A stretch of DNA of 64,000 bases from Gnetum montanum (taxonomy: Eukaryota > Plantae > Gnetophyta). This document shows positions 1,774 through 61,100 of this stretch, in pieces (positions within the stretch are counted from its first letter, which is position 1; the number at the start of each line of letters is the position of its first letter). A program made the position numbers and the translations under genes. The notes below the pieces were generated by a model. The model was not told the DNA's origin. It saw only the letters and a list, made by a program, of their open reading frames with translations, and did no database searches. Where the stretch lies: assembly GCA_015680685.1 (NCBI GenBank), contig MNCI01002435.1:88570-152569 (forward strand), in the 5' to 3' direction.

Positions 1774-2015
1774 CATCCAAAATGATGTTAAACTACCAAT
1801 CATCTAGTACGACGTTAAACTGCCAACAAACATCTGCAATGACGTTAAACTAGCCATGGTTAGAAATGGCTGGTTCCTTTTAAAGCTCCCTAAAACTATT
1901 ATTGCTTTTGGCCCACTATGACCTAAAACTGGTAATCCTTCTTTCTTTAACATAGATGTGATAGTCCATCATGACTTTAAATTGATGTACACAGCCCGAA
2001 ATGGCTTTAAACTAG
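1774..2015 (+). ncRNA. Cluster of ~6 coremin-like pseudoknot/hairpin motifs just after the gag-pro stop
   Basis: Examples: gtacgacgttaaactgc, ggcccactatgacctaaaactggt, tagtccatcatgactttaaattgatg, agcccgaaatggctttaaactag. Confidence 0.6.
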
Positions 2016-7400: not shown

Positions 7401-7789
7401 GACGCTCCCCCCCCCTCGTCACTTCAAAACCTTTCTTAAACCCCTAATATTTAATTTAATTTAATTTAAATTCTTTTATTTATTTAAATTTACCATGTTT
7501 CATGTTTAAATTTTGTTTTCTTGTTATTATTTATGTCATCTTTATTTCATGCTTGTTTAGCATTCCTCATCATTCCATCCTCAGGAGATGAATCCAAAAA
7601 AAAGATATATAAAAAGGAAAGGGGAGAAAACATATAAAAATACATAATGAAGCACATGAAAATCCATAGGACTTTAAAATCCTTTAAATTTATGGTTCAC
7701 ACGAAATCAACAATGCTCTATACACTGATCCAAAATGACAAATTGACATGAATATTATTGGCTCGGTACGGTCTAAAACTGCCATAACT

Positions 7790-10700
7790 ACTGCTACGTC
7801 CCACAATTTTGTTAGTACATAGATTAATTACCCAATGCCCATTTACATTTAACNNNNNNNNNNNNNNNNNNNNNNNNNNNNNNNNNNNNNNNNNNNNNNN
7901 NNNNNNNNNNNNNNNNNNNNNNNNNNNNNNNNNNNNNNNNNNNNNNNNNNNNNNNNNNNNNNNNNNNNNNNNNNNNNNNNNNNAAAGACAATATAAAAAC
8001 ATTTGCATGGTCATATACCAACATGCTAGGATTGGACCCTTGAATCATCCAACACAACATCATTCTTGATGGAGAAATCAGACCGGTGAAGCAAAAAGCA
8101 CAAAAGGTTAAACCTAAGGTAGCGTTAACAATTTGTGCTAAAATCACAAAGCTCTACCAAACCAGTTTCATTCGTGTTGTTGACTATTCTGATTGGGTAT
8201 CAAACATTGTCTTAGTCCCTAAGAAGAACGATAGTATACGCATATGCATTGACTTCAGTGATCTCAACACAGCCACTATAAATGATGACTTCCCGCTACC
8301 TAGCATTGATCAACTTAGTGACACAACTGCTAGGCATGCGCACTATTATCCTTTATGGATGGATTTCCATAATACAATCAAATAAGAATCAACCCAAAAC
8401 ATCAACTCAGAACAACCTTTATGACACCTTGGGCAAGATTCTGCTATACAATGATGTCGTTTGGTCTTAAAAATGCAGGTGCTACATATCAATGAGCAAT
8501 GACATATATATTTAGTGATTACATGCTCAATTTGTTCAATGATTATGTTGACGACATTGTGGTTAAATCTAAAACAACCGAACAGCATGCAAAAGATCTA
8601 GACTTAGTGCTTAAACGTTGTCTCAAATATGACCTTAGGCTCAACCCAAAGAAGTGTGTCTTTGCTGTTAAAACAAGAAAAATTCTTAGCTTCGTAGTCT
8701 CTGGAACAAGGATATGGTTAGACCCTGACAAGGTTAAGGCAATAATTAACATGCAACCACCAAAAAACCTTTCCGAACTACGTGGTCTTCAAGGTAGATT
8801 GGGATTCATTAGACGCTTTATCAAAAGACTAACAGATAATTTGAGACCCATGCAACACCTATTACAAAAGAATGTGCATTTCCAATGGACTCAACAATGC
8901 TAGGAAGCATCCAAAAACATAAAACAAGAGCTGGCTCAACTGCCAACCATTTATCCCCTACAAAGTGATAAATCCTTCTACATCTACCTTGCAACTTCCG
9001 ATTCTTCCATTGCATCTATGCTTTGTCAAAAATGTAAAGATGGAGTCGAGGTCCCTATATATTACCTAAGCCACGCTCTAATTGCTTATGAACAAAGATA
9101 CAACGACGTGGAGAAATCATGCCTTGCCCTTGTCTTCTCCTTGAAGAAATGGCAGCATTATCTCTTCCATAATCAAGTTTACATCATTTGCAAGAATAAT
9201 GTATTCTGCGCCATCACTAACAACATCTATGAGTCGAGTAGGATAGCTAGGTGGAAAGCGATGATCGCAAAGTTTGACTTACACTATGTCACTCAATCTT
9301 CCACAAAAGGTCAAGCAATAGTCACATAATTAATCGTCTCGCCAATGCATGATCAAGCAACGATAAACCCTAAATTCCCCGATGAGAATGTTAATAGTAT
9401 AGACACCGTACCTGATAACTACAAGTTAACACTTTATTTCGATGGAGCTTCAACTTCTCGAGGAGGAAGTGCTACGACCATTTTAACATACCCCTTCTGA
9501 GAAATCAAACCCTTTGTGTACCGATTAACCTTTTCCTACACCAATAATGTGGCAAAATACGAATGCCTTCTTAGAGGTCTTCGGGCAGCATTGACTTCAG
9601 GAATCACACGTCTTGTAGTTCGAGGTGATTTAGAGCTAGTCATTAATCAAGTCATGGAGGTTTATGCATGCAAGGCTCTCCATTTGCAACCATATCGTGA
9701 TTTGACTAAACATTTGTTGAGGTAATTAGTAGAAGTGGATATACAACATGTCCCCAAAAGAGAAAACACCATTGCCAATGCACTTGCTACAATAGCCCTA
9801 AACGTGACACCTGAAATAGTCCATGTGTTGCCTAACTCTATAACAAATTGTGCCGAACCTATAACCAATGGTCTCGATGAGATGCCTATAGCATCCGTTA
9901 GTACAACACATGTAATTGAATGGTACGATGACATAAAATAGTACCTTCTACGAGGTAAACCTCCACAACATTTGACAAATGCTCAAAAAGACGTCGTGCG
10001 AAAACACTCTCGACAATATGCGTTAATAGGAGACACCTTGTGTCGCAAATCCTATGAAGGAATTCTGTTGATGTGCATTAGTAGTATTGATGGTCAAACA
10101 ATTGTAGAACAAGTCCATGAAGGACTTTGTGAAGGGTACATAGCACCTAAAGCAATGACAATAAAGATTAGGCGCTTGGGCTACTACTGGCCACAGTGGA
10201 GTACGATTGCTTCTCCAAGGTTAGGACATGTGACATTTGCCAAAGGCATGGTAACCTAATACATGTGCCACCTAACAAATTTCACACAACACAAATCACA
10301 TGGCCATTCCAAAGATGGGGATTAGACTTAATTGGATTGATAACGCCATCATCCTCTACAAGACATAGTTTCATTATCACTACAACTGAATACTTCACAA
10401 AATGGGTAGAAGCTATTCCCCTTAGGAAGACCACGTTTAAACATGTTTGCACTTTCATAATAGAAAACATTGTGACTCGTTTTGGTATTTCAATGACCAT
10501 CGTTATTGACAATGGGCTACAGTTTAGCAATGCAGATACTAAAAGCTTCTGTGAAAGCCTAGGTATTAAACATGCATTCTCGTCACCTTACTACCTCCAG
10601 AGCAATGGTCAAGCGGAGGCTACAAACAAAACTATCGTCATGGTGCTCAAAAAGATGTTAAATAAGAGCAAAAGATGATGGCACGAACAATTAGTCTATG

Positions 10701-11155
10701 CATTGTGGGCATACAGAACAACACATCGCACATGTATAGGTAAAACTCCATATAGTCTTGTATACGGGTTTGAAGTTGTTTTACCTTTAGAGTTACAGGT
10801 TCCGTCGTTGCGGATAGCTCTCTTAGGCCTCCTCGATGAAAGCTAAACCAATGAAATGCACATTGCTGACCTTGACTTGGTGGAGGAAGAATGTGTACAA
10901 ACACTTGATTAGATCGAGTGGTACCAGAAACAACAACAGCAACGACATAAACACGATCTGCATAAGTGCCCAATTAAAGAAGGAGACCTAGTCCTTAAGG
11001 CCATCTATGAACATCTAGATAAATTCTCAACTAACTAGGAATGACCTTACTTAGTCACCAAGGCATAAAATAACAGAGCATTCAAGCTTGACTTGGATGG
11101 GAATGAGTTCGCTAATCCTACAAATCACCTGTACTTGAAATGGTACTATGTTTGA
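7790..11155 (+). pseudogene. pol: Degenerate pol: RT, RNase H, additional archaeal-type RNase H (aRH), integrase
   Basis: PMPIYI before the gap; AWSY..GLDP; RICIDFSDLN; YVDDIVV; RH EKSCLALV; aRH LYFDGAS..TNNVAKYE..RGDLELVINQ; INT H..H..CDICQ, WGLDLIG, DNGLQF, QSNGQAE; ends LKWYYV*. Frameshifts and stops present. Confidence 0.95.
7854..7983. other. Assembly gap (130 N)
   Basis: Run of n. Confidence 1.
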
Positions 11156-11174
11156 TGAACTTGAGGTACGTAAC

Positions 11175-11502
11175 GGTCTTGGCATCATGACCTAAAACTG
11201 ATACCATAGAATGGTCCAAGGGCTATGACTTGAAACTGGCACCATAGAATTTTTTGGAGTCATGACAATAAACTGATACCACAGAACCTTGTCTAGCATG
11301 ACACTAAACTGCCACATTTGTTCACCATGACGTAAAACTAGCATGCAGAGTCCACTAAGACTATAAACTAGTTTGCCTCTTCACAATCTGCTACGACTAT
11401 AAACTAGCACTACACCATCTGCTACGACGCTAAACTGGCACCGTCCAAAGGGTTATGACGTGAAACTAACCCGCAACAGTCCGCTAAGACTATAAACTGG
11501 TG
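11175..11502 (+). ncRNA. Tandem array of 10 coremin-like pseudoknot motifs at the start of the element A 3'UTR
   Basis: Ten units with conserved nGACnnnAAAC and covarying flanking stems, e.g. cgtccaaagggtta-tgacgtgaaac-taaccc and agtccacta-agactataaac-tagt. Confidence 0.7.
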
Positions 11503-15089: not shown

Positions 15090-18000
15090 CTACGAATGAG
15101 TCCACTAGAATAGACAGGAGTACAACCCCTCCTTGTTTGACATAATCCCACTCACTAAGTCCTACCACCAGTTGTTGTCCCAACTCATCCGTGCAAACAA
15201 GCATGATGCAAGGACAACCTACGAGAAAGCCTCGCAGAAGGAGGAAGATGAGTTCGAGGCCCACTTTTAGCATGAGAGCCCCTTCCACATCGTCTTCCAA
15301 CAACCACTCCCTAGTACAACCCCTCCTTTATTTGGTCCACCCATCCCCTTTGAGATGGTGACCATGCCAATTCAACCTTCCTCACAAGCAACTAATGCAT
15401 TTTCCCAACACTATGCTCATGTAGGGGCCACCTCCCAGCCCTAAACAACTCAAACATCCTACATCCTGCCTATCTCATCGGTGTTTGTAGTGTTTTTCCA
15501 ACCCACCCATGTGTGGCCCACTCCAATCACTGCACCCATCGCTCAGCCAATACATCAACAATCGTCCACTACAATGTTAGACTGGCAACACCCATCCGCT
15601 ATGACATTAAACTGGTAGACTCTACAACCAACAATTCAACCCCATGTTATCCAACCAAGACAAGCCTAGTGATGAGTGGCGAGGTACCCCTACACTCAAC
15701 CATACGAAACGAGCGTCGCACGCGCGATCCGGTCGAACTCCGCAGATGGACTAGTTGTGGTATCTAGATAGTTAGCCTTAGGTCACAGTTCGCTGTCTTC
15801 CCATCTAGACTAGTTTTGCATATGTCACGTATGGTTTAGTCTAGATGAGGTGTATGATGTGTCCTAATCTAATGCTACTCCTGATGGCAATGGAAAATAA
15901 TATTTAACTAAATCTAAGCTAAGAGGAAAAGGGTAAGAAAATCTAATCTAGCCTAAGTGCGACGAGCAACCGATTCCTTGATCAACCGTACACATCTTGG
16001 ACTTCGTGCACGACTGCCACTGGGACTACCAAGCATAGGCCTAGGTACGCCACTGGGATTACCAAGCGCAGACCCCAAATACGCCACTGGGTTACCAAGC
16101 GTAGATCCCCCTAGCTACACCACTGGGCTACCAAGCAGTCACACTTAAATGCTCGTAATCAAGTCGAACTCGTTCCGCTTCTAGGAGTTCAGGGTTGAGA
16201 GACTAATCGCGATAAGTAACCGATTCCTTAACTAGCCGTACACACCCGTAGATGCTCGTAGTCAAGTCGTACTTACACCGCGCTATGAAAGCAATAAATA
16301 ACATGAAATAAATAACAATAAATAAACTAAGTGAATGCTGCAATGATGAAGTAATCTCGATCTTTATTGCCGGTCATGTGCATGTCCAAGTATGGCACAC
16401 TCGAATAAAGACACCGTACAATCACATTCACCACACTGCGGGCAGACACGGGAAAATTCTAACTCTGGAGGGATCAAATTGCCAGAGCTTCGCTACCTAA
16501 AACTAGGATCCCCAATTGAGGGAGAGCCGCCTCTTATTTATAGACATGACGGCTGACTGCGATATCGCGTACGCGATATCGTAGGGAAGGACGCGATATC
16601 GCGGCCGACGCAAACCGCGTCTCATCACCTAGCCAATGCAACCGGCTAGCACATCTGCAAGCTTGGATTAAGCATTCCAACTAATCCAAAGCTTGATGGA
16701 GAAGATCAACTGACTTAAGGCTACCTCCTCTAACACCATCAAGGTGGTGGACTTCTATGGAGATGACCCCATAAGTCCTACAGTACCACCCCTAATTCTT
16801 CCAACTGGGGCCCAACTGCCTCAATTTACCAAGTACAACGGAGAAGGGGATCCCAATGCACACTTGGTCACATTTTGATCTGAATGCCTACTCCTTCAAG
16901 CTTGGCCACATGCCATCATACATGTCTTCCCCATGTCACTCACTGGCAAGGCCTTAGACTGGTATCATGTGTTACCCAATGCCTCAATCTCCTCTTTGGA
17001 AGATCTCATAAGAATGTTTGTGACACACTTCAAATCCAACCTAAAGCCTGAAGCAACCCTCAACCAGCTGATGCAAGTTAAGCAGGGGCCTCTAGAGCCT
17101 ATGTCAAAATTCCTCCAACGTTGGAATGTTGCATTGAGTGAAATGCATGAACCCTTAGCACAGACACACCTACTAGCTATCTTCAAAGGTGCAGTGAATC
17201 ACTTCATCAAGTCCAAACTATATTATCTAGCCCCAAAGTCTCTTAGCCAATCCTTTACCCAAACAAAAGGCATAGAGGAAGCAACACAAGCTAGCAATGA
17301 TCCAACCCATGTGGCCTACAGAAACCAACATGCTTACAAGCAAAACAAAATAGTGATAACAGTAGCCACAAGCACAAAAGTAACCAACCAGGGCCCCATA
17401 GCTAAGCAGCCCAAGGCCCCAGCTAACAAAACCACCAATTCTGGCACCAACTCACCTACATTGATAGGGGCTACCCCAAGGCCCAAATTTCAGCGCAAGG
17501 ACTGCTCAAAGTATACACCACTATCGGTGCAACACTCTGAACTACTAATGAAACTCTTGAAATTTGGGCAAATCCAACACAAACACGTATCGACAATTAC
17601 TTGTCAAAAACATGATAAGTACTATGAACTACTAAGGAACCCCACTTTAGCAGTGCCAAATGAGCCCCCAATTCCACAACACTTCAAGCTAGACCAATAC
17701 TATCATTACCACCAATTGGTTGGTCACAGTACAGACAACTGTCGTGCTTTGCAGGATGACTTGTAGAGAATGATAGAAGGGGCCCAAATGGTGATCAACA
17801 CAGTGAGTCAATCCAACATAGATAATGCCTCCTATGTCATAAATTCCATTAGCATAGGTGGTAAGTCTAAACCTACACAACGACCTTTTGTGATCTGTGT
17901 GCCTCCCAGCAAGGCAAGGGTCCCCTCCGCTTCCATAAGCAAGAGGCCTTCCTTTATTATCAAAGTGCCACCTCGAGCACCCATAGCATCCTTTGTGGTC

Positions 18001-19215
18001 AAAGTTCCATAGCAACCATCCACTAAGACGTTAAACTGACATGATGCAACAATAATCGCTAAGTAACCTTTTATTATCAAGGTGCCACAACAAGCTGACA
18101 ACATAACAACTCCACCTAAATCACCATTTGTCATAAGGGTGCCACAACATGATGACCCCTCACCTACCCGAAGCCCAACAATAAGCAATGTCTCAATCTC
18201 TCCTCCCTCAAGGGTAGATCCCACTAGCAACCCGAGTGGACCTACCAAATGGCAACGCAAGAAGACAAATGAGCACCTTGCAACCCCCATGGCTGAAGCA
18301 AAAGCCACAACTAACAAGCAACAACCAAATATTGGGACCCCTACCCCCAAACAAGCCAAGAAAACCAAGCCCAAGTCCCCTCCATGAGAGATCTATCTCT
18401 CAAGCCACATGGAGAAAGTCAAAGGCAACACAATAGCCAATGACAAGGACTTTGTAGCTACACTAACCCAGGTGAAACAAATGCTCAAACAAAAGAATAC
18501 AACATTGAGCTTGTATGACCTGGTCATGACCTCATCTACTCACCACCAAGTCTTGGCCCAAATGTTGGCCTCCATTCCTATTATGGAGGACATCCCTGCA
18601 GATGAGGCATCCATCCATGCAACAATGTTACCTCCTACACCATAAGAATTGGGTTCAACAACCCTAGCCTTTCACGATGATGCAGTCAAAGTCAACTCCG
18701 AATGAGGGGAGGTCACTACAGCTCCATTATCCATTAGCATTCGTGTTGGGCAGTGCACAATCCGCAGAGTGCATGTCAATGATGGTGCAACAACAAACAT
18801 AGTCCTGTACTCCATCATCGACAAACTAGGTATGGCAGATGAAATCAGGCCAACCAAAACCACATGTCTAAAATCCTTCAACAGATCACGTGTCATAACC
18901 AAGGGTACAATCAACTTAGCCTTTGTGGCAGGAGAGTAATTCCCCACCGGTGCATATTTCACTGTCATAGAAGAGATGACAGGTTTCAACATGATTCTAG
19001 GTAGGCCTTGGCTAGCCCAACTAAGGGCCATCTCCTCTCCCATCCACCAAGAAATCCACCTTCCATATGAAGGTGGTCAAGTTATCATCCATGGTGATAA
19101 TGCTTCCTCTTCGACTATCCATGACATAGACATGGTGCAAGTTTTGAAAGAGGAGTTTCTTGGTGGTACACCTATGGCAACCAACGTAACGCCTAAGGCT
19201 AACACACCTGAATGA
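15090..19215 (+). pseudogene. gag-pro: Degenerate gag-protease of element B (interrupted by a solo LTR)
   Basis: FTKYNGEGDPNAHL, SLTGKALDWY, HQLVGHSTDNC, RRVHVNDGATTN, FNMILGRPWL; 5' boundary approximate. Confidence 0.85.
15670..16627 (-). mobile_element. Athila-like solo LTR with 5-bp TSD CCTAG
   Basis: TGATGAG...CTCATCA termini; CCTAG at 15665-15669 and 16628-16632; its reverse complement ends gtatggttgagtgtaggggtacctcgccactcatca, like the LTRs at 29081 and 34746. Confidence 0.92.
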
Positions 19216-19519: not shown

Positions 19520-19950
19520 ACATGGCCCAGAAAGGCCTTAAACTAGCCTATGGCCCGAAAAGGCCTCAAACTAGCCTACAGCTTGGAATGGCCTAAAACT
19601 ATCACTTTTGAATTGATTTCCTTTCATTCATCCATTTTAACTCTGTTTACAATAGGTGTTATTTGATGTTGTTTTCTTTTTAGTTGATTTTTTGCAGGAT
19701 CTTATAGGCATGCAGCACAACCATGCATGCAGTATTGCACCTTACACAAGCAAGGTAAGCACCAGTCCGCTATGACTATAAACTCGCATAGATAGTTCAC
19801 TATGACTATAAACTGGCATAGCTCGTCCTTAGGTCATGACGTTAAACTGGCACAACATCCACTATCTGCTACAACATTAAACTTGCATCCAACAATCTAC
19901 TAGAACTATAAACTAGCACATCACGGTCTGCCAAGACTTTAAACTGGCAT
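19520..19950 (+). ncRNA. Coremin-like motif arrays of element B (3 GGCC-type units at 19520-19602; 6 GTC/GAC units at 19764-19949)
   Basis: tggcccgaaaaggcctcaaactagc; cagtccgctatgactataaac; tcgtccttaggtcatgacgttaaactggc; ggtctgccaagactttaaactggca. Confidence 0.65.
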
Positions 19951-46609: not shown

Positions 46610-49600
46610 ACAATTCTAGGACATAATAATCGTTGATGAGATTTGGCTCTCTTGGTTTGTTTTGCACTGGGTGCCTTCATCATTTTTTGAGTTTGATTCC
46701 ACAGATTTACTTATGCTTCTTTGTTTTGTAGTTCACACTTTACTAGTCTATTTATCTTATCTGGAGTTTTAATTTATGTGGAGATTTTTCCGTGTGATTC
46801 TTAAATGCTTTTTTCTGCATATCCAGATCGTTTTTTCTTGATGATAAACTCCAGGCAATCATTATATCATTACTGATGCGTACATGTGTAGTACATTTAT
46901 GGTTGATTTACCTTTTAGTTTGGGAAAGAGCATACGGAATGCCTTGCTAGCTCGTGAAAGCTCTTGAACTCCAAGCAAATGAATTTGTGCTTTGTAATTA
47001 TTTCCGGTGGAAGCATGTGAGCATGAAAGCATGGGATCATGGACATCATGCCATGCCATGTCTTATACATTAAAAAATCTAGAAATTGCAAACAAATCTC
47101 AAATGTACATCCAGAAACTATCCCATTTCCAAACAATTTGCAAAACTAGGGCCAAATCCCCTACAGCTCCTCCATGTCATCACTTGGCCAACAAGACTTT
47201 GGCAAACAACTAGAGAAAACCAATTATCAACCTTAGGATCATAAGGACAGCAGAGAATGCACAAATTTGATGAGTAGAGAGAACAACAGTGCATTTTAAG
47301 CAGAAAAAAACGTGCATTTGAGAAGCAAAGACAGCAAGATATGCTAACCCTAGCAAAATATATATATGCACCGTCAAGAGCCATTAGAACAATAACTTGA
47401 GAGGCAAAAATTAAAATTGTAGAGAAATGTTTTCCACCAGTTATTTCCATTTCTTCTTTTGGATGGTGAAGTTTTTTTATCAAAAATTGTTGGACTTTAA
47501 TTTAGAGATGAACACAATAAAGAAGTGGGCTGTGTTTTAATTATAAGTTTACAATTTCGGTAGGCTTTGCAAGTTATATAGAGGATGCAGGATTTGAGCA
47601 GTGCTTTGTTGAGCCAGTTTTCAAAGGTATAATGTCATATGCAATTGGCAGATTTAATTTGGTTTGGTAGATACTACTGAAAACAACCATTATAAAAGCT
47701 GAATTTGAATTCTCAGTGTATCATTCAATTGGTAATTATCAAAAATATAAACAATTTTTAGTTTTCACTAAGGAAAAAGAATAGTTTCAAACAAACATAA
47801 AGGAACGAAATACTTGCTGAGTAATGATTCCATCACAAAATCATGATAAGCTAAACAGAGCAAAGCAAAGCTTTCATTTCATTCTCCACTTAACGTCTCT
47901 TTTGTTTTAATGTGTCCTCCCCTGCTCTCTCTGCCAATACTATGATTTATAGGAGTATTTTCTGATTCTAGTTGCATATGGTTAAGAAGGCGGGAGGAAA
48001 TTGCAACAGTTATACAGGCATATCTGTATAACCTTTATTAGAGTTTTTGCTTCATGTAATGCAATGTTAATTAGTAAAATAATTTACTTGAAGAAACGCT
48101 TGAAATTGAATGGTTTTTGTAGAAAACTGAAGATGACCTCCTAGGTGTATTCTGAGTCCACCATTAAATTTAGCATGGTAAAAAATATTGGAATTTATCC
48201 CTTATTTGGTAGAAATGCACTTTAGGTTAGAAAATTATCATTATTTGAAATCTTGCCTTTGGTAGGGTTTGAACTATTAATCTCTGAAATTTGTCTGTGT
48301 GTATTGATCAAAGATGATATCCTTAGTGGATTGGGAATGGACCGTTGTCAAGTTGAAAACATTGGAGACAGCTTTGTTCAAATTGGAGTAGGAATGAGGA
48401 AGTTATGGTCCTTCAAGCATCTTAAATCTGCCTCTACTGTTTGAGATTTGAATTTGTGATCTTTTCCTCAATACACATGTTCAAAGGTGTTAGATTTGGT
48501 GTGGGGCTTCTATTGTTGTGTTTACTGACTCTCATACCCTCTGACACTTGGAAGAAATTTATTGTGCAATGGAGACTGCCTGGAAAATGCAAAATTGGAG
48601 ACTCCCTACAAATCAACATTGGGATGATGATCCATATCTCTCAAATTGTTGAACAAAATTCATCATATGAATAATTGAAACAAACCTTTGTGAAACACCC
48701 CAAAAAATTGTGAAGTCATTCTCGCTTCACTTGGCCTTGCAATCCGCGGAACACCATGGCAGTTCTTCAGGAGGAGAATGCCCTGAGCCTAGGCCGGCTA
48801 GTTCGGCAAATTTTCTACTTTGGGCATGGACGGGCCTTACATCATCCTGCTTGTCCACCCAAGTAGCCTGCCCAACTGACAGCCTACTCAAAAACGGTGC
48901 GCGGAGTTGGCAGCAGCATTCTGGATGCACGAAACAGTTCGGCAAGTTTTCTAAGTCACGAAGTCTGCTACACTACGCTACGACTCGTAGCGTAGCACGC
49001 TTTAGAAAACGATGGCAGAACGAAGTGCTACGCTACGCTACACCACGTAGCGTAGCATAGCAACAACTTCGTTACCACTCCCCTTGCCCAATTTCAGGAT
49101 ATGCAGCAATGTCCCTTCCTACCAGGAAGCGGCGGACCATGTCTGCTGCTACACTACGTCGAGCTACATGGCGCAGCAAGGCGTAGCAATCTTGCGGAAG
49201 AGACAGAAGGCAGCTCAAAGGGCAGAATCGGCAGAGTTCGCAAGACTTGCATCGCATGAGACAAAGTTTGCAGATCGGCAAAACTTTCACGATTAAGGCC
49301 AGTTGCTACGCTACGTAGTGTAGCAAGCATGCAACATATAGCAGAACGTGCGACAAGGTGCTACGCTACGCCAAGCATGCTACGCTACAAATCACAGCAA
49401 GGCATGAGGGTGGTTGTGCGACATTAATGCACTTCACCTAATTTGACCATTGGCACATGTCTCCAAACGCTGACGGCGCAATTACGGCGTGGCAGGCTCG
49501 TAGTTATTGCATGACGGGTTTGCGTTACAACGGCCTCATAGGTCCAACGGTCATGCATGGCACAAATGGTGCTAGCAAGTCAACGAAAGCCCAAGGCACG

Positions 49601-50388
49601 TAGCGTTCAAACTGTCTCTTTTGCATACCCTTGGTCCTATAAATACCTTGGCAAGTAGCATTCAAAAAGAGGCCGGAATTTCTTGAAGTAAGTAGCATCC
49701 AAAAAAGTTAAAAGATTTTTGGAGAGACAGCATTGAGAGATTCGGGCTTGCTCCTTAACAAGTTTCTTTTTACATCGAGCATTGTAAGCTTCCTGTTTGA
49801 CACTGCAAACAGTTAGCATTTTTAGCTGGCATTTTGTTCTATCCTTTTTTTCCTTTTTTCTTCTACCACCTTGGTAGAATCCCTGTGCGGCCAACATTCA
49901 GGTCCGCACCAAAGCGCACCACTTGCTTTGCTCGACATGTCCTGGTCATTCTCGGGATCTCTGCACGTCGTCGCACTGTGCAACCGATTGTATCCACCCT
50001 AATGGAGCAAACTTGTAGTTCTTGAGCGGTGCATGTTTCTAACTACATTTTACCTTATTTCCTGCCTGTTGTCTCGTTTTGCATTATTTTCCTGTTTTAT
50101 TCATTTTTAAGCATTACTTCGCATTATTGTGGCATTTTAAGCTGTTTCTTTTCCGCTTTATTTATTTTCGAGCATTATTTCGCATTCCATTTCGTCTCAA
50201 AAATATACATTGCAAAAGGCTATATTGACGCCGATGTAAGTCCCTGTTTGATCGACCAGACCGTTCAGGGCACCATGTGTCCACACACACCCAACACGAC
50301 CCTCCCGCGGGTATGGGGTCGAAACTGTCGTGCCCATTGACCCCCCGGTGTTTTCCAGCCGTCGACGTTTTCGGTCGCTACAATTTTC

Positions 50389-50405
50389 TGGCGCTAGAAG
50401 GAGGG
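50389..50405 (+). promoter_or_regulatory. PBS complementary to the plant tRNA-Asn 3' end
   Basis: TGGCGCTAGAAGGAGGG is the reverse complement of ...CCCUCCUUCUAGCG-CCA (tRNA identity from memory). Confidence 0.8.
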
Positions 50406-50469
50406 CCTTTTGTTGCCTTCGCCGTTTGTCACGGTAGTTCTGTGAGCCTTTTGCGCCCTGATACACATG

Positions 50470-51305
50470 AGTGTAGACGCAACACCCTCTTGTGGTTGTT
50501 TGCGCTTTGTGCGGTGCAGATCGGTCGCCTTGACGGTTCCTCGGGAGCCCTATAGAACACAAGGCCTCCGATCACCGGTTAACTAGCTCTTACGGTTGTC
50601 TTGCATGTGTTTTGTACCCCATCCTGTGTGGTACAGAGCGGTCGCTTCGACGGTCCTTCGGGGATCCTGCGAGACGCAAAGCCTTGTCGATCGCTAGTTA
50701 GCTTGCCCGTCTTATGGTTGTCTTGCATGCGTTATGTACCCCATTCCTTGTGGTACAGAGCGGTCGCTTCAACGGTCCCTCGGGGATCCTGCAAGGCACA
50801 AAGCCTTCTAGTTAGCCTGCTTGTCTTACGGTAATCTTGCAAGCCTTCTACACCCCTGTACGCATTAGCGTAGACTCGACACCATATGTGGTTGTTTACG
50901 TGTTGTGCGGTGTAGATCGGTTGCCTCGACGGTCCCTCCGGGATCCTGTGAGACATAAGGCCTTTTGACAATTAGCTAACTTGCCTTCCTTTCTTTTTTA
51001 TGGTAGTCTTGCATGCGCTCTACACCCTAGATCGCACAGGCGTAAGCGCGACACCCTTTTGTGGTTGTTTAGGCCTTGTGTGGTGCAGGTCGGTCGCCTC
51101 GACGGTCCCTCCGGGATCTTGCGAGACATAAAGCCTTCTTGATTGCCAGTTAACTGAACTTGTCTTACGGTAGTCTTGCACGTGCTCTGTACCTCATCGC
51201 GCACTAGCATAAACGTGACACCCTTTTGTGGTTGTTTATGCTTTGTGTGGTATAGATCGGTCGCCCCGACGGTTCCTCCGGAATCTGGCAAGACATAAAG
51301 CCTCC
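50470..51305 (+). repeat. Six imperfect 110-180 bp tandem repeats in the 5'UTR of C
   Basis: Core ggtRYaga(t)cggtcgcYtYgacggtYcctccgggatc at ~50512, 50630, 50752, 50909, 51082 and 51249. Confidence 0.85.
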
Positions 51306-51387
51306 TTGTGTTGCTCTTTCAGTCTCTTTATTCTTTTTGCGCTTCTTGCGCCTTTTTTTCCTTTTTTGCATAATTACTTGCTTAGCA

Positions 51388-54300
51388 ATGGCTTCCACGA
51401 CCACCGTTGTTGACACCTTCAATGCGGAGGTGCCCTTCACGATTCAAGGCACCACTGGTGCTAAACAATCGTTGAACCCAATGATGGAAACACGATGATC
51501 CCTCAGAATCCAAAATCAAGGACTTGAGGGATTGGCCCAGCAATATGAGCATTACAGCTTCCTTTGTGCAAAGGTGCAGGTCAGTCTGCCCTTGGATTTA
51601 CACGAGCTCGAAGAAAAACGTAGCTTCGAGTTCGCTTACTGCAACGGGAAGGAATTCGTTCCTACCCCCGGCGTTTTGTTACCTTTAACACAAGCGTATC
51701 AAAGGCTCTTGGACCAACTAATCCAGTTGGCCAGGCTTAGGGAGCAACAGGACACAGCGTCCGACTAAGAGGACACCTTCCAAAACGGACAGGAGGAACT
51801 CGATTCCCAATCTGACGAGGGAGGCCAAGTCAACCCCATTCTTATCCGTCCCACCCAGTCCTTCTGGGCCAACCCGTTGTCTGTCACCGCCCCATTTGCC
51901 ATTACGCCTATGCTTCCGCAGCCTACAGCTGCAACTGCAATGGGTAGCCATACCACATTCCAAGCATATCCTTGCACTTATTCCCCTATTGCGTTCACAG
52001 CAGCTATGCCCCCGCAAACTGATTATCAGCACATTCCTGCAGTATGTAACATACCTATCACGGCTACCCTACTGCATGTTCATACTATACCTTCGCAACC
52101 GCACATAACTGCCATGCCAATTCCTACGCTAGCATCTATTCCACCCATAGTGGTGGGCCCCGGTCTATCCACGTGGTGGGCACCGTTCGCTTCTTCATTT
52201 GTTCTACAATTGTTGCAGATGTCTCACCACGTTCGCCCTCAGACCTACTTTACCCCGCAAACGGTACATCCTAATACAGGGACATGGTCTGTCCCGCTGG
52301 TGATTCAAACGGTCTATTCGGTGGCTCAACCCGTTGTTACTGCTATGACAGTACCACCCACTAGGTGGTGGACAACGCAAACAACACCTACAGCGGGGGC
52401 GGCCTCGACGGCACCGTTGATGGGTCAGCCCGCCACCGCCACCATGCCGCATGTGGGAGCTGCCTCTTCAGTCCCTCAACTGTCTATAGCGTCGCCAGGT
52501 CTGGACCAAGCGTTTTAGCTCATCCAGACCCTCAATGAGGAAATAAAACGCCTAAAAGCAGTGGGGTCCGACACGGTACAGGTCATGGACTTTTATTAGG
52601 ATGACCTCGTCAGCCCTGCAATCCCTGCTTTAATGTTACCCCCCGGGATGTCTCTCCCACACTTCACGAAGTACGACGATGAGGGAGATCCCAATGCGCA
52701 TCTTGTCACTTTCAGGTCTGAGTCTTTGTTGTTGCAACAATGGCCGCACATGATCATTCGTGTCTTCGCCATGTCCCTAGCCGGGAAATCCTTAGATTGG
52801 TACCGCGCGTTGCCACGCTCATCCCTTTCAACTTTGGAAGAGCTCCTGACCTAGTTCGTGACATGCTTCAAGTACAACTTGAAGCTAGAAACCACGCTGG
52901 ATCAGTTGATGAGTGTGAAACAAGACCCGCTAGAACCAGTCCAAAAATTTATTCAACGTTGGAGCACAACCCTTAATGAAATCCGCGAGCCCATCGTGAA
53001 GGCTCACTTGTTGGCCGTCTTTAAGGGTGCAGTAAACGACTTCATCAAGTCCAAACTATATTACCTCGCTCCTCGCTCTCTTAGTCAGGCTTTTGCTCAG
53101 ACTAAGAGCATACAAGACGCGGCCGAAGCAAGCAAAGACCCGGCCTATATCGCTTACAAAAGCACCTTCGCAAAGAAGGATAAGGGTAAGGGCCCAACAA
53201 CCACAGTAGCCGCTGTGGCAACCGAGGCCAAGCCCAAGCCCAACAGTAGCGGTAGCAAAACTAACAAGAAACCGGCCATACCTACGGCTAATCCTGCGCC
53301 GAAACTGGGCCAAGCACCGCAACCCGTTGCACCTACACCCGAGACATCTGCATACACCAAACCCAACTTTGAGCACAAAGACCGCTCAAAATACACCCCA
53401 CTGCCTCTCAAACCTTCAGAACTCCTGAAGCAACTGTTGGCAGCGGGATACATCCAACACAAGCAGATGTCGGAAGAAGCAAACGCAAGACATCAACGCT
53501 ACTGCGAGCTCCTTAGGAATCCCTCTTTGGCCCTGCCCAATGAGCCTCCGGTCCCTAGGGGTTTCAGGTTAGACAGGTTTTGTGACTACCACCAACTGTG
53601 TGGTCACACCACGGATTATTGTCTGTCGTTGCATAATGATATCCAAAGATTAATCGACCTGGGGAAGCTGGTACTAGACAAAAGCAACCCAGTCTGCCCT
53701 GAAAATCAATCTATGTATGTCTACACAGATCCCCTCAACGCCAATAATGCTGGTTACGTAATTAACACCATCGGCATTGACAACAATCCCACGCCACCCC
53801 GCCAGCCATTTGTGATCCGTGTGCCTCAGCGTAGTGCACTAGCACCGCCAATGGTTGGTCCAAGCTTGTAGCTGCCCTTCATCCTAAAGGTACCACCATC
53901 AACATCCACCTTTGCACTGCCTGTTGGCGAGGCCATGCGGTCTTGTTAGTTAACACCTCTAGCTCCATTCATTATCAGGGGGCCGATGTCCTCAAAGGCC
54001 CCTATCTCGCACAACACAGCTGAGCAGCCTCCTCGCCTTGCAAGGCGAGAAGTCCGCTTTGTGGACGAAATGTCGAAGGGAAGTACCGTCAAAAGCATCC
54101 CCATGCCTACGTTTTCGCCCCTTGCATCTGTACCTTCGTCGTCAAAGGCGAAGATCAACATGACTACGCAGCCTGCATTACCCTGTCGGCAAGGATCTGA
54201 GCCCAGATCTGAGTCAACCTCCCCTCAGGAGATTCGTCTTTTGGGGTGGATCGAAGAGGAGGAAAGTGTCAAACAAGCGAGCGGCCAAGACCTTTTGGAC

Positions 54301-55206
54301 ACCCTCATCCAGGTCAAGCAAGCTTTAAAGCAGAAAAATGCCACACCAAGCTTGTACGATCTAATCATGACTTCTGTACCTCACTGCGAGGCTCTAGTCT
54401 GCATATTAACGACGATTCTGGTCGACGAAAACATGCTAGCGGAAGAGGAAGCGATTCACTCGGTAATGCTTTTCTCTGTACCCGTAGAGCCTGCACCATC
54501 CCAATTAACTTTCAATAACGACGTCATTAGGGAAGATCCCGAGGGGGGTCAAGTAACTACGGTGCCTCTCTTCACCACAATTTGGGTCGGCCAACACCGG
54601 ATCCAAAGGGTACACGTTGATGACGGGGTTGCCACAAACGTTATTCCCTTCCCTATTGTGGACAAGTTGGGATTGGTCGACCAGATTAAGCCCACGGCGA
54701 CGTCATGTCTGAGGTCCTTCAACGGGGCACGGGTCCTGGTGAAGGGCACAGTTCACATAAACTTCATAGCAGGGGATCAGTTCCCCACAGATGCAATGTT
54801 CATCGTAGTCGAAGAAATGCCCGGGTTTAACTTGATCTTGGGAAGATCATGGTTAGCGCAACTTAGGGTTGTTTCCTCGCCCATACACCAAGAAATCCAC
54901 TTACCGTACGCAGGTAGGGAGGTGGTAATCCGCGGTGACGAAGTTGCAACGCAAGCAATCGGCAACGTGGACATGGAACAAGGCTCAGAGGTTACGACCT
55001 CTGAGAATGAAGCGCTTGTTCATGCATACGTTAATCATTCAACGGAAGGATCAGCTCAACGAGCCGACTCCCAAACCAAAAACGCATGGGTCGAGTTGCC
55101 CTTCCAAGCAGAGGACAATGATGTGAACAAGGGCCCTGGCGAAACACCTTGGCCTTGTGTTCCAATCAACCCACGACGGGTCAAGAAGCAGCTACGCATA
55201 GCGTAG
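51388..55206 (+). pseudogene. gag-pro: gag-protease of C: one continuous frame broken only by ~7 point stops
   Basis: ORFs at 51532, 51877, 52633, 52858 and 53986 are all in the same frame; FTKYDDEGDPNAHL, FCDYHQLCGHTTDYC, QRVHVDDGVATN, FNLILGRSWL. Confidence 0.92.
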
Positions 55207-55294
55207 CAACCCTACCGCTTCTTGCCAGGTTGCCATCCCTTGTACATTTGCCGTTTCCTTGTCTTGTCAGCATGCCGTCCTGTCGACATGCTAC

Positions 55295-55452
55295 GCTATG
55301 GCCCAAAATGGCCTAAAACTAGCATTGTTGCTTTCCACCTTATTAACATGCCGTTCTTCTGGCATGTTACGCAATGGCCTAAAATGGCCCAAAACTAGCA
55401 TGGCCCGAAATGGCCCAAAACTAGCGATGGCCCGAGATGGCCTAAAACTAGC
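55295..55452 (+). ncRNA. Four GGCC-type coremin-like units after the gag-pro stop of C
   Basis: atggcc(c/t)(g/a)a(a/g)atggcc(t/c)aaaactagc x4. Confidence 0.6.
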
Positions 55453-55622
55453 ATACGAGAGCATAAAAACTTTACATGGTACACAAGTTAACATAAAATT
55501 GGTTCCTTTTCTGAAGTTTTTTCATTTCATTTAAAAATTTTTGCCTATTGGCAATGTTTGCAAAATTTTCAAAAAAAAAAAAAACAAAAAAAAGGAGAAA
55601 AAAAAGGAAAAATCCCATGCTG

Positions 55623-57869
55623 TCATGGGTTGTCTCCATCTGCATTGCCTTCGTTGTTTGCCTCCACTTCATTTACTTGTGCATCGTCTGCCCCTGCGTT
55701 GCCTTCTACTTGTTTCGCATTTCTTCCCTCCACGGGTCTTGCACCCTCATCTGGAGCTTGCATCGCAAGAATGAGGTAGTCAGCAAGCGCAATAAATGCA
55801 ACAAACACTAGCTATAACATAGCATGAGCATCTACTTGTTAAAGCAATTAACCTGAGGAGAGCCTACGTCGGTCTCAAGGGGTATTTGGTCTAGACCAAG
55901 CCTGAGGTGACGCCAAATCTCCTCTGTCGTAATGTCCATCCAACACCTGTCGCTAGGTTCAGCATTCATAGTAGCAGCTTTCTCCCTTTCCACGGTTGTC
56001 CATTTTAGAGGTTCCGAGGAAAGGGAAGTGGTTGTGGTCTCCCCTGTAGGAAGGTTCACCTGCAAGTCAGGAGATTCCGTCACCTTCACCTGCTCTTTGA
56101 ACTTAGCGTAGGCCTTAGAAGCACCAATGACATTCACAAACGCTTCATACGTGAATGCCTCCACGACAGCATCTTTGTACAACCTTCGATGGGTCTCATT
56201 CTCTAGCTTATACATATGTTTGTGGTCTCTCTGGGTTTTTCCCCATTCGAAGACCTTGACGCTGATGTCTTTCATGTCCTGGCACTTCTGAGCCAGCAAG
56301 TCCATCTGCATTTGCTGCTCGACTATCTCGCAGGTGGACTCAACGTTTTGGTGAATGACTGTCCAAAATCTGGCATGGTCATCCACCGCCCTTTTCCAAT
56401 CGACAACGTCAGGGTTACGGTTTATAAAAAAAATCATTCCTCGACCTGAGATTCGCCACCTCGGTGGCCAGGTCGGCCTCTCTCTGCTCAGCCCCTTGGA
56501 CCCGCTTCCACAGGTCCTCGTTGACACGCCTACACTCCCATAGAGAGCGTGCCAAGCGCAAGACACACTTGTGAGCCTCGTCAAACGTGCGACGAGGCAC
56601 CTCGGTCACGTCAGGTGAGAGTGTAGGCACAACGCCAACCTTCATAGGTCGTGCCGAGTCCCACTTGAGTCGAGAGGTTGTCTGATGCAAAGAGTATAGC
56701 AACTGCATTAGCATGGCAGAATCAACAAACTCAAAATTTCAGCGTAACAACACAGGAGCATTTAACACTACTAGTTACTTGCGCGAGGGTCCTCCTGCTG
56801 AAGGTGTTTGATCATGTTGTCAACAAGTCCCTGCATGAATGTAAACTTGTCAGGGACCTCGGCCCATGACTCCACATGAATCGGAGGGGGTCCCAAAGCA
56901 TCAGTAGCAGCACCCATTACACGATTAAGCATGTCAGCAATGGCAAAAGTGGACTACGATAAGGTAGGCATCCTATCAACTCACCAGTGCCCAACTGTGG
57001 CCTTTCTTCTTGCTGATGCAAGATGATCACGGTGGTCCCGGTGGAGGGCCTTGCCAAGTCCATGTGAGCCCCTTCCTCATGCGCTGGTGCCTTCCCTTTT
57101 AGGAGACCAGCGTCTTTTTTATTTAGGGGAGGCACCTCTTCGTCGGTGGGAGGAGGCTCCCTGATGACAAGAGCCCCTGCCCTAGAGATAGGAGCTCCCT
57201 TATTCCCGACCGGTGCCCTTTCCTCCAAGGCTGGGGCCTCCGCGTCTTTATTAGTTGTCCTCGTCTTGAGGGCCGACACTTCCTCGTCGCCTTCTTTTTC
57301 ATCTTCTTCTTCCTCTGCTAGCAAAAGCGTATGTTTGCGTCAATTCAAAATAAGTTAGCTTAAAACAGATGCTACGCTACGTCGCATCGCTTAGCAAACT
57401 ATGGCAAAGTAGGCATTACGCAAAAATGCTTACCAATAGGGGGTTGCGTTCTCCGCAGCTTGAGCCACAGTCTTTGCCTCTCCCCTTCATGGAGGTTTTC
57501 CCTGGTTGGGGGAGGCCTCTTCCTTCGCAACTCCTTGGGTGCTATCTCAACCATGAGACGTTCACCCCGTGTCACGCTACCGGTTATGACAGGGGGTGTC
57601 TCTCCCACGCTGTCCTGGCCACGAATGCTACGAACTGCCAAATTTTTAGTCGTTACAGATAACGACTCTCCAACCATTTCCGGGGGATCTTGGGATTGCA
57701 TGGTCCAAAGGACCTGACGAATCCATGGTTTGGGAATCTGGTCGCGGTCTTGCATGGTCCAGACCCTGTCCTCCTGGACCACTAGGAACTCCGCGAAGCG
57801 CTTTAGACAACCTATGTAGAAGGCATAGTGTATGTTAGAGCGGGACTTCGTTTGCTCATGGAGTCCCAA
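55623..57869 (-). pseudogene. 5'-truncated antisense accessory gene of C (5 exons)
   Basis: Exons 57869-57434, 57317-56985, 56916-56779, 56702-55853 and 55757-55623; donors GTAAGC, GTGAGT, GTAACT, GTTAAT; peptides align with A (WIR....T..SQDPPE; G.V.....HLQQ; L.WD; AR[FY]W; MDLL..KC.D; Q.DHKH). Confidence 0.8.
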
Positions 57870-58115
57870 AATCCGCTACGACGATAAACTGGCAACAACA
57901 TCGAGCAGCGTCTGCAATGACGATAAACTAGCAGCATCGGCAACCGTCCACTACGACGTAAAACTGCCACCGCTAGTCCACTATGACTATAAACTGGCAT
58001 TGCTCGTCCGCTACGACGTTAAACTGGTGTGTACGGTCTATTGGGACCTTAAACCGGTACAGCGGTCCGCTGGGACCTTAAACCAATACACGGTCTACCA
58101 AGACCTTAAATTGGG
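57870..58115 (+). ncRNA. Tandem array of 8 coremin-like pseudoknot motifs in C
   Basis: cgtccgctacgacgttaaactggtg, tagtccactatgactataaactggc, ggtctattgggaccttaaaccggta and others. Confidence 0.7.
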
Positions 58116-61100
58116 TTCGCATCACGTCCCCAACATGCACCAGCACCAGATACACATCAAACGAGTGGGCGCGATGCTAACATGTGGGTGGGACGTCGTA
58201 GCCCTGGAACGTGATTCACAATGCACTGATAACGTGGTCCGGGACAAGTGCGACGCCGCCACCCTTGGCATCATGCTGACCCCTCGAAGACACCATATGG
58301 CGTCACATTGGCCCCTCGAACCTACCGTCGCCACGGCCCACCGCCCTGATGGTAGTTCCTGGGCTAGTCCTCCAATCCCCTGCCAACACCTCGGCTTGCA
58401 TGATGTTTAGCTATGTGGTAGCCGATCCCATAGCTGAACTCAGCATGCATGCCTTTGGCGGGGATTCTAGTGCATTCGCACCCGCAACAACTCTTGGCAC
58501 CTCGGAGGCCAGATCCTCCACGTCGGTGCTACCAAGGCAACTGCTGGCCTCCCTGCTTTGGGCACCTCACACTAGCAAGGGTGCCCAAGAGTAACAACAA
58601 TGCCAGCAGCCAACGAGACCTTTGCCTCCGCAGGCACATCTGGCCGCAGCAGCAAATGCTGCAGCGTCTTGAAGTGAGTGCCTTGACTAGCACTGTTGCT
58701 TCAGAGTGCAAGCTCCATGATGCGCGTAACACAACTCGTTGCATGGAGTGCATCTGTGGGTAGGTCAAAACCCTTCACGGATGTAATGCAACTCATCCTG
58801 TGAAGGGAACACCTGACCTACAAGAGGTTGAAGAACAATGCCAGCCAAAGATGAAAACGCAAACGAGCCCCTCAGAGCATTCCAACGAGCGAATCCACTA
58901 AACATCATCTTTGCTCTCTACCTTAACCTCTGCACAATCAATGCAACACTCTCAAGTGCAGCCAAGCGACGTCCTGACACTCACCAAAGGACAACTTAGC
59001 ATTTTGATGCGGTGTTTCATATTCTTTGCCGACGTCTATCGAGCCCGGTCTCCAGATGCCGACAAAGAGGGGCCAATGAAACATCCCAAAAAATTGTGAA
59101 GTCATTCTCGCTTCACTTGGCCTTGCAATCCGCGGAACACCATGGCAGTTCTTTAGGAGGAGAACGCCCTAAGCCTAGGCCGGCTAGTTCGGCAAATTTT
59201 CTACTTTGGGCATGGACGGGCCTTACATCATCTTGCATGTCCACCCAAGTAGCCTACCCAATCGACAGCCTGCTCAGAAACGGTGCGCGGAGTTGGCAAC
59301 AGCATTCTGGATGCACGAAACAGTTCGGCAAGTTTTCTAAGTCACGAAGTCTGCTACACTATGCTACGCCTCGTAGCGTAGCACGCTTTAGAAAACGATG
59401 GCAGAACGAAGTGCTACGCTACGCTACACCACGTAGCGTAGCATAGCAACAGCTTTGTTATCACTCCCCTCGCCCAATTTCAGGATCTGCAACGATGTCC
59501 CTTCTTGCCAGGAAGCGGCGGACCATGTCTGCTGCTATGCTACGTCGAGCTACATGGTGTAGCGAGGTGTAGCAATCTTGCGGAAGAGATAGAAGGTAGC
59601 TCAAAGGGCAGAATCGACGGAGTTCGCAAGACTTGCCTCGCAGGAGACAAAGTTTGCAGATTGGCAAAACTTTCGCGATTAAGGCCAGTTGCTACGCTAC
59701 GCTACGCTACGTAGCATAGCAAGCATGCAACATATAGCAGAACGCGTGACAAGGTGCTACGCTACGCCAAGCATGCTATGCTACAAATCACAGCAAGGCA
59801 TGAGGGTGGTTGTGCGACATCAATGCACTTCACCTAATCTGACCGTTGGCACATGTCTCCAGACGCTGACGACGCAATTACGGTGTGGCAGGCTCGCAGT
59901 TATTGCATGATGGGTTTGCATTACAACGGCCTCATAGGTCCAACGGTCATGCATGGCACAAATGGCATCAGCAAGTCAACGAAGGCCCAAGGTGTGTAGC
60001 GTTCAAACCATCTCTTTTGCATACCCTTGGTCCTATAAATACCCCGGCAAGTAGCTTTCAAAAAGAGGCCGGAATCTCTTGAAGTAAGTAGCATCCAAAA
60101 AAGTTAAAAGATTTTTGGAGAGACAACATTGAGAGATTTGGGCTTGCTCCTTAACAAGTTTCTTTTTACATCGAGCATTGTAAGCTTCCTGTTTGACACT
60201 GCAAACAGTTAACATTTTTAGCTGGCATTTTGTTCTATCCTTTTCTTTCTTTCTTCTTCTACCACCTTGGTAGAATCCCTTTCCGGCCAACATTCAGGTC
60301 CGCACCAAAGCGCACCACCTACTTTGCTTGACATGTCTTGGTCATTCTTGGGATCTCTGCACGCCGTCACACTGTGCAACCAATTGTATCCACCCTGACG
60401 GAGCAAACTTGTAGTTCCTGAGTGGTGCATGTTTCTAACTACATTTTACCTTATTTCCTGCTTGTTGTCTCATTCTGCATTATTTTCCTGTTTTATTCAT
60501 TTTTAAGCATTACTTCGCGTTATTGTGGCATTTTAAGCTGTTTCTTTTCCGCTTTATTTATTTTCGAGCATTACTTCGCATTCCATTCCGTCTCAAAAAT
60601 ATATGTTGCAAAAGGCTATATTGACGCCGATGTAAGTCCCTGTCTGATCAACCAGACCGTTTAGGGCACCCCGTGTCCGCACACACCTAGCATGGCCCTC
60701 CCGTGGGTACGGGGTCGAAACTATCGTGCCCGCCGACCCCCGGTGTTTTCCAGCCGCCGACGTTTTCGGTCACTACACTTTGGATGTCTACTTTTCAATG
60801 CAGAAGGAATTAGATCAATTGGTTCAGTCTTATTATAGATGTTATTCCCACGATCAAGATTGTCTAGAATGACCAAAATTGAAATAAAGGTTTCAATACT
60901 AACTCCTCCGTCCAAGCTTTTGTTTGGAACTTGAGAAAAAGATTATGCCAAATTCTTTTATCAAGGGATAATGAATGAGGTTTGATTTGTTGAGGCTTGG
61001 ACATAGTTTGGTTTTAGAGTATTGCAAGGAATTTTGCGATCTCTAATGAAAGATAGGAAGAATTCACAGCAAAGTTTGTTGCAAGATTATTCACATTTCT

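Follow-up and report, generated by a model that had tools for sequence, protein, structure and literature searches.

Coremin-like RNA units in tandem arrays of plant LTR retrotransposons from Gnetum montanum

A 64,000-nt stretch of the Gnetum montanum genome (hereafter the window) is a plant-type nest of long terminal repeat (LTR) retrotransposons, and three of its elements, here called A, B, and C, carry short GGCC-loop-GGCC units downstream of the gag-protease (gag-pro) region. What are these units, and what might they do in the RNA of the elements that harbor them? The initial annotation had set them apart as a second motif class (class 2 below, the GTC/GAC units of the same elements being class 1) and had mapped them onto the viral coremin. 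The coremin-like RNA element proved real and structured, which extends a known kind of element to a new class of host, the plant LTR retrotransposons. From their sequence, the units are predicted to act in the sense RNA as pseudoknot roadblocks that stall XRN-type exonucleases and leave stable 3' fragments, a function that we propose with moderate confidence.

All of the annotated class-2 units (C, four at 55300-55451; B, three; A, one) were found in place on the + strand, as were the GTC/GAC units of A from 1774, with 12 bases between the TGA of the protease frame (1759-1761) and the array (Table 1). Each unit of C reads GGCC-loop-GGCC-NN-AAACTAG. The hairpin stem has four pairs and a C-G closing pair in seven of the eight units, the exception being unit 19580 with three pairs closed by U-G. 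The spacer of about 10 nt contains the core A16-A17-C18-U19-A20 in every unit, and five of the eight loops (two of the four in C) fit the consensus YGNNAD. When 1.2-1.35 kb around the class-2 arrays of B and C were compared, only the arrays aligned (77% over 83 nt). RNAfold predicted all four hairpins of C's array (z -2.9); the program cannot model pseudoknots and pairs the tail of the first unit, C1, with upstream bases instead.

The status of class 2 as a separate motif did not survive a wider look at the window. A search pattern that prescribed nothing but the 3' arm, the loop A, and the tail matched 35 times (33 on the + and 2 on the - strand), whereas 100 dinucleotide shuffles averaged 3.3 matches and never exceeded 9; since the pattern was derived from the window, part of this number was built in. 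The strand bias of the matches, their clustering, and the complementarity of their 5' arms were not. The 23-nt unit occurs about 33 times and forms five arrays, that of B having a second one just behind it (Table 1). Thirty units with six-base loops were aligned. Their outer stem pair is AU in 8, CG in 8, GC in 8, UA in 1, a wobble in 2, and unpaired in 3, while the middle pair is UA in 21, CG in 8, and unpaired in 1. The stem covariation score was 0.39 as compared with 0.17 after shuffling, none of 500 shuffles scored as high, and slid partners reached at most 0.105. Given these two-sided changes, GCC/GGC is a compensatory version of GTC/GAC; classes 1 and 2 are a single motif family, with class 2 as its compensatory-stem variant. 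Stray units lie at 7760-7782, just before the assembly gap of A, and in the gag region of B at 15565-15615 (unit 15593) and 18017-18039.

Within the family, two subtypes are split by the loop base preceding the invariant loop A. A purine there goes with a U-A tail and no more loop-tail pairs, as seen in all 10 such window units, in 61 of 63 viral units, and in 122 of 123 units from a fungal-type repeat. With a pyrimidine there, pairing extends to the tail purine and to one base more: 22 and 21 of the 23 pyrimidine-type window units are paired at these two positions (15.0 expected by permutation), as are 70 and 62 of 70 units in a second LTR-type group (35.2 expected) and 60 and 57 of 60 in the fungal-type group (52.2 expected). 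Counted as distinct loop/tail triplet types of the pyrimidine units, 12 of 25 pair at both positions, including the seven most frequent. Class-1 units with long loops extend the loop-tail helix, up to six pairs at 11442, and the class-1 covariation includes U-G pairs, which are workable on the sense strand only. All eight class-2 units belong to the purine, or viral, subtype. A Watson-Crick pseudoknot was considered for class 2 and rejected, these units forming the A-U loop-tail pair only; the post-gag-pro array of A mixes in units of the Watson-Crick-pseudoknot type at 1801, 1910, and 1963.

The mapping onto coremin proved stronger than first proposed. [quoted passage not shown] Six-base-loop coremins follow the YGNNAD rule, and the loops CGAAAU, CGAGAU, and CGAAAA, all present in class 2, were Xrn1-resistant in assays, CGAAAU in a beet necrotic yellow vein virus context (PMC10520033). 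Like this six-base-loop form (xrRNA-C, an exoribonuclease-resistant RNA, or xrRNA, of plant, fungal, and invertebrate RNA viruses), class 2 combines a 3-4-bp hairpin closed by C-G, a YGNNAD loop in the five units mentioned, a 10-nt spacer with AAACUA, a sense-strand, non-coding site behind a stop, and tandem copies. Unlike it, class 2 resides in plant LTR retrotransposons, has a stem made only of G-C pairs, carries G at spacer position 21, and is without an evident separate second hairpin, and its resistance is only predicted. Behind the inner units, the stem of the next unit follows after 3-5 nt, as in viral tandems.

Class 1 can be set beside the Watson-Crick coremin (xrRNA-WCC), in which a register of loop-spacer pairs A7-U19 and G6-C20 was demonstrated by mutation (PMC10321173). 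In class 1, too, the loop A pairs with spacer U19 and the preceding base with position 20; however, xrRNA-WCC has a four-base loop with a required G5 and G8-C18, whereas the class-1 loop has 6-11 nt and starts with a pyrimidine, and its helix reaches position 21 and beyond. Class 2 differs from xrRNA-WCC in having no Watson-Crick pairs at spacer positions 19-20 beyond A-U. The loop-tail covariation is independent support for the coremin pseudoknot, the structure of which is unsolved in the papers compared, and class-1 units are better-folding candidates for structure work, for which they may be the better target, and for RNA-stabilizing tools. Another viral element, xrRNA-LT (class 3 xrRNA) of Tombusviridae and Solemoviridae, is likewise a pseudoknot and blocks Xrn1/XRN4 in intergenic and 3' regions, but its fold is larger, with two stacked helices, and no sequence likeness to the window units was tested for or seen; "transpos" does not occur in the text compared (PMC12397905). 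Our literature search, which left most subscription journals outside, found no report of coremin or xrRNA in retrotransposons, and Rfam held no relevant family in the window (four weak matches) or for the motif in 20 loci.

The same unit was also located in viral contigs. A two-unit pattern found 28 IMG/VR loci, with RNA-virus Pfam domains in 18 of the 21 loci scanned. At loop position 2, and again behind the tail U, this pattern accepted either A or G; among 60 distinct viral units, YGNNAD was present in 54 and the A form in 0, and the tail was nearly always U-A with a free last base (TAG 19, TAT 16, TAC 16, TAA 6). The viral units lie on the coding strand in 34 clusters from 26 loci. A long open reading frame (ORF) stands upstream of 31 clusters, of which 23 begin no more than 30 nt after its stop (median 12), and none lies within a long ORF. 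The 26 gaps between tandem viral units measure 0-5 nt, for the most part 3-4, and those of C are 3 and 4. GCC/GGC stems occur in three viral loci (L006, L027, L035), and a class-2-specific pattern found one locus, L078, where the class-2 unit stands 13 nt after a stop. In the opposite direction, a covariance model built from 55 viral units only gave 23 window matches, counted at E up to 5, of which 21 fell in arrays and 22 on the + strand. All eight class-2 units were among them; unit 1993 of A was the top match with 33.6 bits, followed by those at 55429, 57909, and 55402.

The elements that carry the units appear to fit the Tat/Ogre group, judging from a second RNase H and a gag-fused protease apart from the reverse transcriptase (RT). 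The order in A is the gag-protease end, antisense frames (tblastn to those of C), an assembly gap, RT, RNase H, second RNase H, and integrase. The second RNase H, of archaeal type, is RVT_3 at 9501-9722 (E 5.6e-7), between RNase H and integrase, and the gap of N at ~7854-7984 parts the pol of A from its gag-pro. Element B has gag (Pfam Retrotrans_gag) and protease, with pol and the antisense frame both missing. Element C is flanked by a CTTTG target-site duplication, and 73 of its 102 LTR transitions are in CG/CHG context. The protease-like frame after gag (VDDG motif, no Pfam match) ends before the arrays; protein searches found no relatives of it at near or longer lengths, and none of the RT of A in the viral contigs. 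Pfam gave no match for the last gag-protease frame of C, and no family was found for the antisense frames of C and A, with no useful match in Pfam or Atlas.

Like Tat/Ogre/Retand elements (PMC11963269, PMC7004042, PMC4408406), those of the window have short arrays by coding ends or the 3' LTR, antisense ORFs, a gag-protease fusion apart from pol, a second RNase H, and non-autonomous derivatives. Unlike them, they have arrays after gag-pro as well as after pol. In Retand the antisense ORF lies between pol and the 3' LTR, whereas the conserved antisense ORF of the window (2613-4590 and 55832-57875, both on the - strand) apparently lies between gag-pro and pol, a link that crosses the assembly gap. 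With respect to the traits of the Ogre and Retand lineages, among them a spliced gag-pro/pol intron and a TRP28 or PMD extra ORF, RNA reads aligned to C showed no splice joint, and the antisense ORF is without a Pfam or Atlas match. The arrays of the Tat/Ogre/Retand group are family-specific, their origin and function are called unknown by a 2025 survey (PMC11963269), and RNA structure is not mentioned for them in the passages compared.

Where do the arrays stand with respect to the genes? The initial annotation had clusters following every major stop codon. This holds for gag-pro and pol of A, for gag-pro of C, and roughly for gag-pro of B; no sense stop, by contrast, stands ahead of either second array (B, 19764; C, 57870). 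The post-pol array of A has the integrase stop 19 nt and a donor-like site (11166) 9 nt ahead of its start, and the class-2 array of C begins 93 nt after the stop at 55204-55206; the native gag-pro stop of B is uncertain, with in-frame stops at 19213 and 19423. Some arrays come after stops and others 9 nt after donor-like sites; what they share, then, is that a non-coding segment starts there, rather than strictly a position after a stop.

Under the roadblock model, tandem six-base-loop coremin-type units on the sense RNA of these Tat/Ogre-like elements would fold into small pseudoknots. Once the gag-pro RNA was decapped or cut, XRN4 or a nuclear XRN would degrade it up to the array and halt; alternatively, an array-bearing intron could be excised and debranched and then degraded up to the array. 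The outcome would be a stable uncapped 3' RNA. Tandem copies could provide redundancy, with the stem of each unit serving as the second hairpin for the preceding one, and the knot would also slow ribosomes running past the stop. The weakest step, and a guess, is the use of the fragment, which might serve as a non-coding RNA, either to interfere with silencing or to pair with the message of the antisense ORF; a viral precedent reportedly exists for a silencing-related role. Our parallel for such stable non-coding RNAs is found in flaviviruses and benyviruses. More broadly, we tentatively suggest that plant and fungal transposable elements may carry working exoribonuclease-resistant pseudoknot arrays, in viral and Watson-Crick forms, at the 5' ends of untranslated or intronic segments, and that these yield stable non-coding RNAs, though we would put this somewhat short of probable. 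If true, genome-resident elements manipulate host RNA decay as RNA viruses do, a part of the unexplained Tat/Ogre tandem repeats gains a function, and coremin becomes a module common to RNA viruses, retrotransposons, viroid-like RNAs, and phages.

Several points weigh against such a roadblock. What a retrotransposon would gain is not obvious. In three of the eight class-2 loops the second base is A, and CAGAAA, one of those of B, failed the Xrn1-resistance test (PMC10520033). Related-copy reads often show G at 55305, which is loop position 2 of C1, and decay of methyl-cytosine is a plausible source of the A, an argument that is uninformative because the position is always in CG/CHG context. 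Position 21 is G in seven class-2 units and T in one, where coremin has C; C21U and C21A lowered coremin resistance over three-fold, C21G being absent from the tests in the passages compared (PMC6546385). Bases added before the second hairpin also weakened coremin resistance (PMC6546385), and the inner gaps between class-2 units are 3-5 nt. For the last unit of each element, no stable second hairpin was predicted to follow; this test discriminates poorly even in viruses (57% of 35 viral last units as compared with 41% of 192 sites of background). A window-derived pattern served to choose the viral set, so that the matches of the covariance model are partly circular, about seven of the viral loci are near-duplicates, and the permutation p-values are optimistic because the units of an array are related.

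The RNA reads add a further point of this kind. Raw RNA runs from the same species, which are not 5'-end libraries, were aligned to C. Between 23 and 304 reads per run fitted the element, most of them partially and from related copies, and 107-264 fitted 55000-58400 at 80% likeness. Both arrays of C were covered in both read orientations, and unit number varies among copies. There was no pile-up of read starts at the class-2 array of C in these non-5'-end libraries of mostly related-copy reads. Two read-start pile-ups in the class-1 array of C, at 57885 (6 molecules) and 57947 (12 molecules), were rejected as decay ends, the independent starts being few and the RNA strand unknown. Depth peaks on the arrays were likewise rejected as fragment accumulation: the arrays are the best-conserved part and gather reads from related copies.

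Could the knots act on translation rather than on decay? The initial annotation had suggested that they guard a long 3' untranslated region from nonsense-mediated decay (NMD) and XRN4. A shield of the gag-pro mRNA by an exonuclease block is doubtful: a 5'-3' block behind the stop saves the RNA downstream, so that the block by itself would not shield the upstream message. An NMD shield thus needs another target, the ribosome or UPF1, and an explanation of this kind is ranked second. The knots would stop post-termination scanning ribosomes or UPF1, insulate the region behind gag-pro, and lower NMD of the genomic RNA. The viral clusters that start a median of 12 nt after stops, and the arrays of A at 12 and 19 nt, agree with this idea, 12 nt being about a ribosome half-footprint, as do two units in a circular ribozyme-bearing RNA (L077), since a circle has no 5' end. 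Six-base-loop coremins were also found to stall scanning ribosomes as well as the original or better (PMC10520033). However, in C 93 nt separate the array from the stop, the second arrays of B and C are not preceded by one, a literature listing showed no paper on coremin blocking UPF1 or NMD, and an exonuclease block would be just as likely to sit where non-coding sequence begins. We consider this explanation unlikely.

Splice-like sites, scored with a rough matrix of splice-site frequencies, raise the question of introns. The best donor-like site of B (19755; 298 GT sites) and the donor-like site 11166 of A (4th of 550) each lie 9 nt before an array, the second of B and the post-pol one of A, and high-ranking acceptor-like sites follow within a homologous downstream block (11744, 1st of 705 in A; 20244, 3rd of 396 in B). 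The best donor-like site of A (1706) precedes the gag-pro stop, the best acceptor-like site of B (19697) lies just behind its class-2 array, and reads from relatives of C share the donor-like stretch before the second array. In Ogre the spacer between gag-pro and pol is a spliced intron (PMC4408406). All this would suit arrays that mark the 5' ends of introns and either stabilize introns after excision or adjust the ratio of spliced to unspliced RNA. Nevertheless, no splice joint was seen in the reads aligned to C, the class-2 arrays of B and C have no strong donor nearby (ranks 45 and 93), and the unit is also found in cytoplasmic RNA viruses, so that we regard an intron-linked role as improbable. 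As an observation on their own, the splice-like sites 1706, 11166, 11744, 19697, 19755, 20244, and 20292 bracket arrays, and those of A and B outline exon-like pieces of ~50 nt in the 3' regions.

A real RNA fold serving the retrotransposon cycle, as a signal for Gag binding, packaging, dimerization, or export, could explain why the pol-less B and C both kept both arrays while their flanks diverged, as cis-acting signals would be kept. The occurrence of the unit in unrelated RNA viruses, fungal-type repeats, and phage-like contigs without a common Gag points instead to a general host target and makes such a signal quite improbable. Least credible of all are neutral tandem repeats from reverse-transcriptase slippage, or a DNA element (GGCCCA resembles a TCP site II motif): unit number does differ among copies in the reads, and variable tandem repeats, ascribed to illegitimate recombination, are common in Tat/Ogre 3' regions (PMC7004042, PMC11963269), but neither neutral repeats nor a double-stranded DNA site would be expected to show two-sided stem changes, loop-tail pseudoknot covariation, a strict bias to one strand, and units nearly identical to viral ones.

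Table 1. Positions in the window of the unit arrays and of the main features of elements A and C
Feature	Position	Strand	Remarks
Class-2 unit C1	55300..55322	+	GGCC/GGCC stem, loop CAAAAT, tail AAACTAG; viral model 23.8 bits
Predicted 10-bp hairpin between C1 and C2	55344..55369	+	RNAfold
Class-2 unit C2	55376..55398	+	Loop TAAAAT, off YGNNAD; 17.4 bits; 3 nt to next unit
Class-2 unit C3	55402..55424	+	Loop CGAAAT, fits YGNNAD; 30.4 bits; 4 nt to next unit
Class-2 unit C4	55429..55451	+	Loop CGAGAT; 31.0 bits
Second array of C	57870..58114	+	Mostly Watson-Crick type, one viral-type unit at 57909
Class-2 array of B	19524..19602	+	Units 19524, 19552, and weaker 19580; loops CAGAAA, CGAAAA, TGGAAT
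Second array of B	19764..19947	+	Watson-Crick type
Post-gag-pro array of A	1774..2015	+	Viral-type units 1774, 1831, 1993 (class 2)
Post-pol array of A	11175..11500	+	Watson-Crick-pseudoknot type, some 10-11-nt loops
Element C	48691..60777	+	Pol-less Ty3/gypsy LTR element
LTRs of element C	48691-50382 and 59077-60777		6.6% divergent
Primer-binding-site-like stretch of element C	from 50389		
Polypurine tract of element C	before 59077		
Last open frame, interrupted gag-protease region of C	53950..55206	+	tblastn to A and B
Antisense open frames between the two arrays of C	55832..57875	-	Homologous to A 2613-4590
Broken pol of A	8044..11158	+	Pfam RVT_1, RT_RNaseH, rve, RVT_3

Beyond the window and the viral set, a metagenome scan returned 49 loci, including more RNA viruses. 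A group of 19 loci holds large decayed arrays, with a fungal kinase gene near one. The fungal-type repeat family mixes both subtypes in up to about 33 units per locus (L030-L033, L039, L043, L056, L060, L061, L064, L065, L067, L068, L071-L074). Arrays of the Watson-Crick type that lie between polypurine-tract-like sites and near Ty3 pol fragments (L036, L040, L044, L049, L054, L058, L062, L069, L075) make up a nine-locus group that represents a second retroelement-like family, three of its contigs being fold-back palindromes. The circular RNA-like contig L077 (1046 nt, no long ORF) has a hammerhead ribozyme on one strand and, on the opposite one, a twister; a tandem pair of coremin-like units lies just upstream of the hammerhead. 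Four loci (L050, L052, L055, L076) show an intergenic array of up to six long-loop units 46 nt after a stop, and a locus of this group looks bacterial, with a multiheme cytochrome gene present.

In prokaryote genomes, single units were dismissed as chance (20 loci, 19 of them with one unit, pairing at chance level). In IMG/VR a single-unit Watson-Crick pattern found 21 loci, 19 of them outside ORFs of 100 aa or more; the unconstrained outer pair was complementary in 11 of 12 distinct units, and many of these loci look like phage gene leaders. The single units of phage-like contigs (L099-L119; L004, L038, L048, L057) often stand before a Shine-Dalgarno-like sequence or right behind a stop.

Two features of the elements themselves were also recorded. 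The LTR at ~12664-14419 seems to double as the 3' end of A and the 5' end of B, two divergent elements, with the polypurine tract of A before it and the primer-binding-site-like stretch of B after it. In the 5' untranslated region of C, at 50426-51308, there are tandem repeats of 122-167 nt with an acceptor-like site in each.
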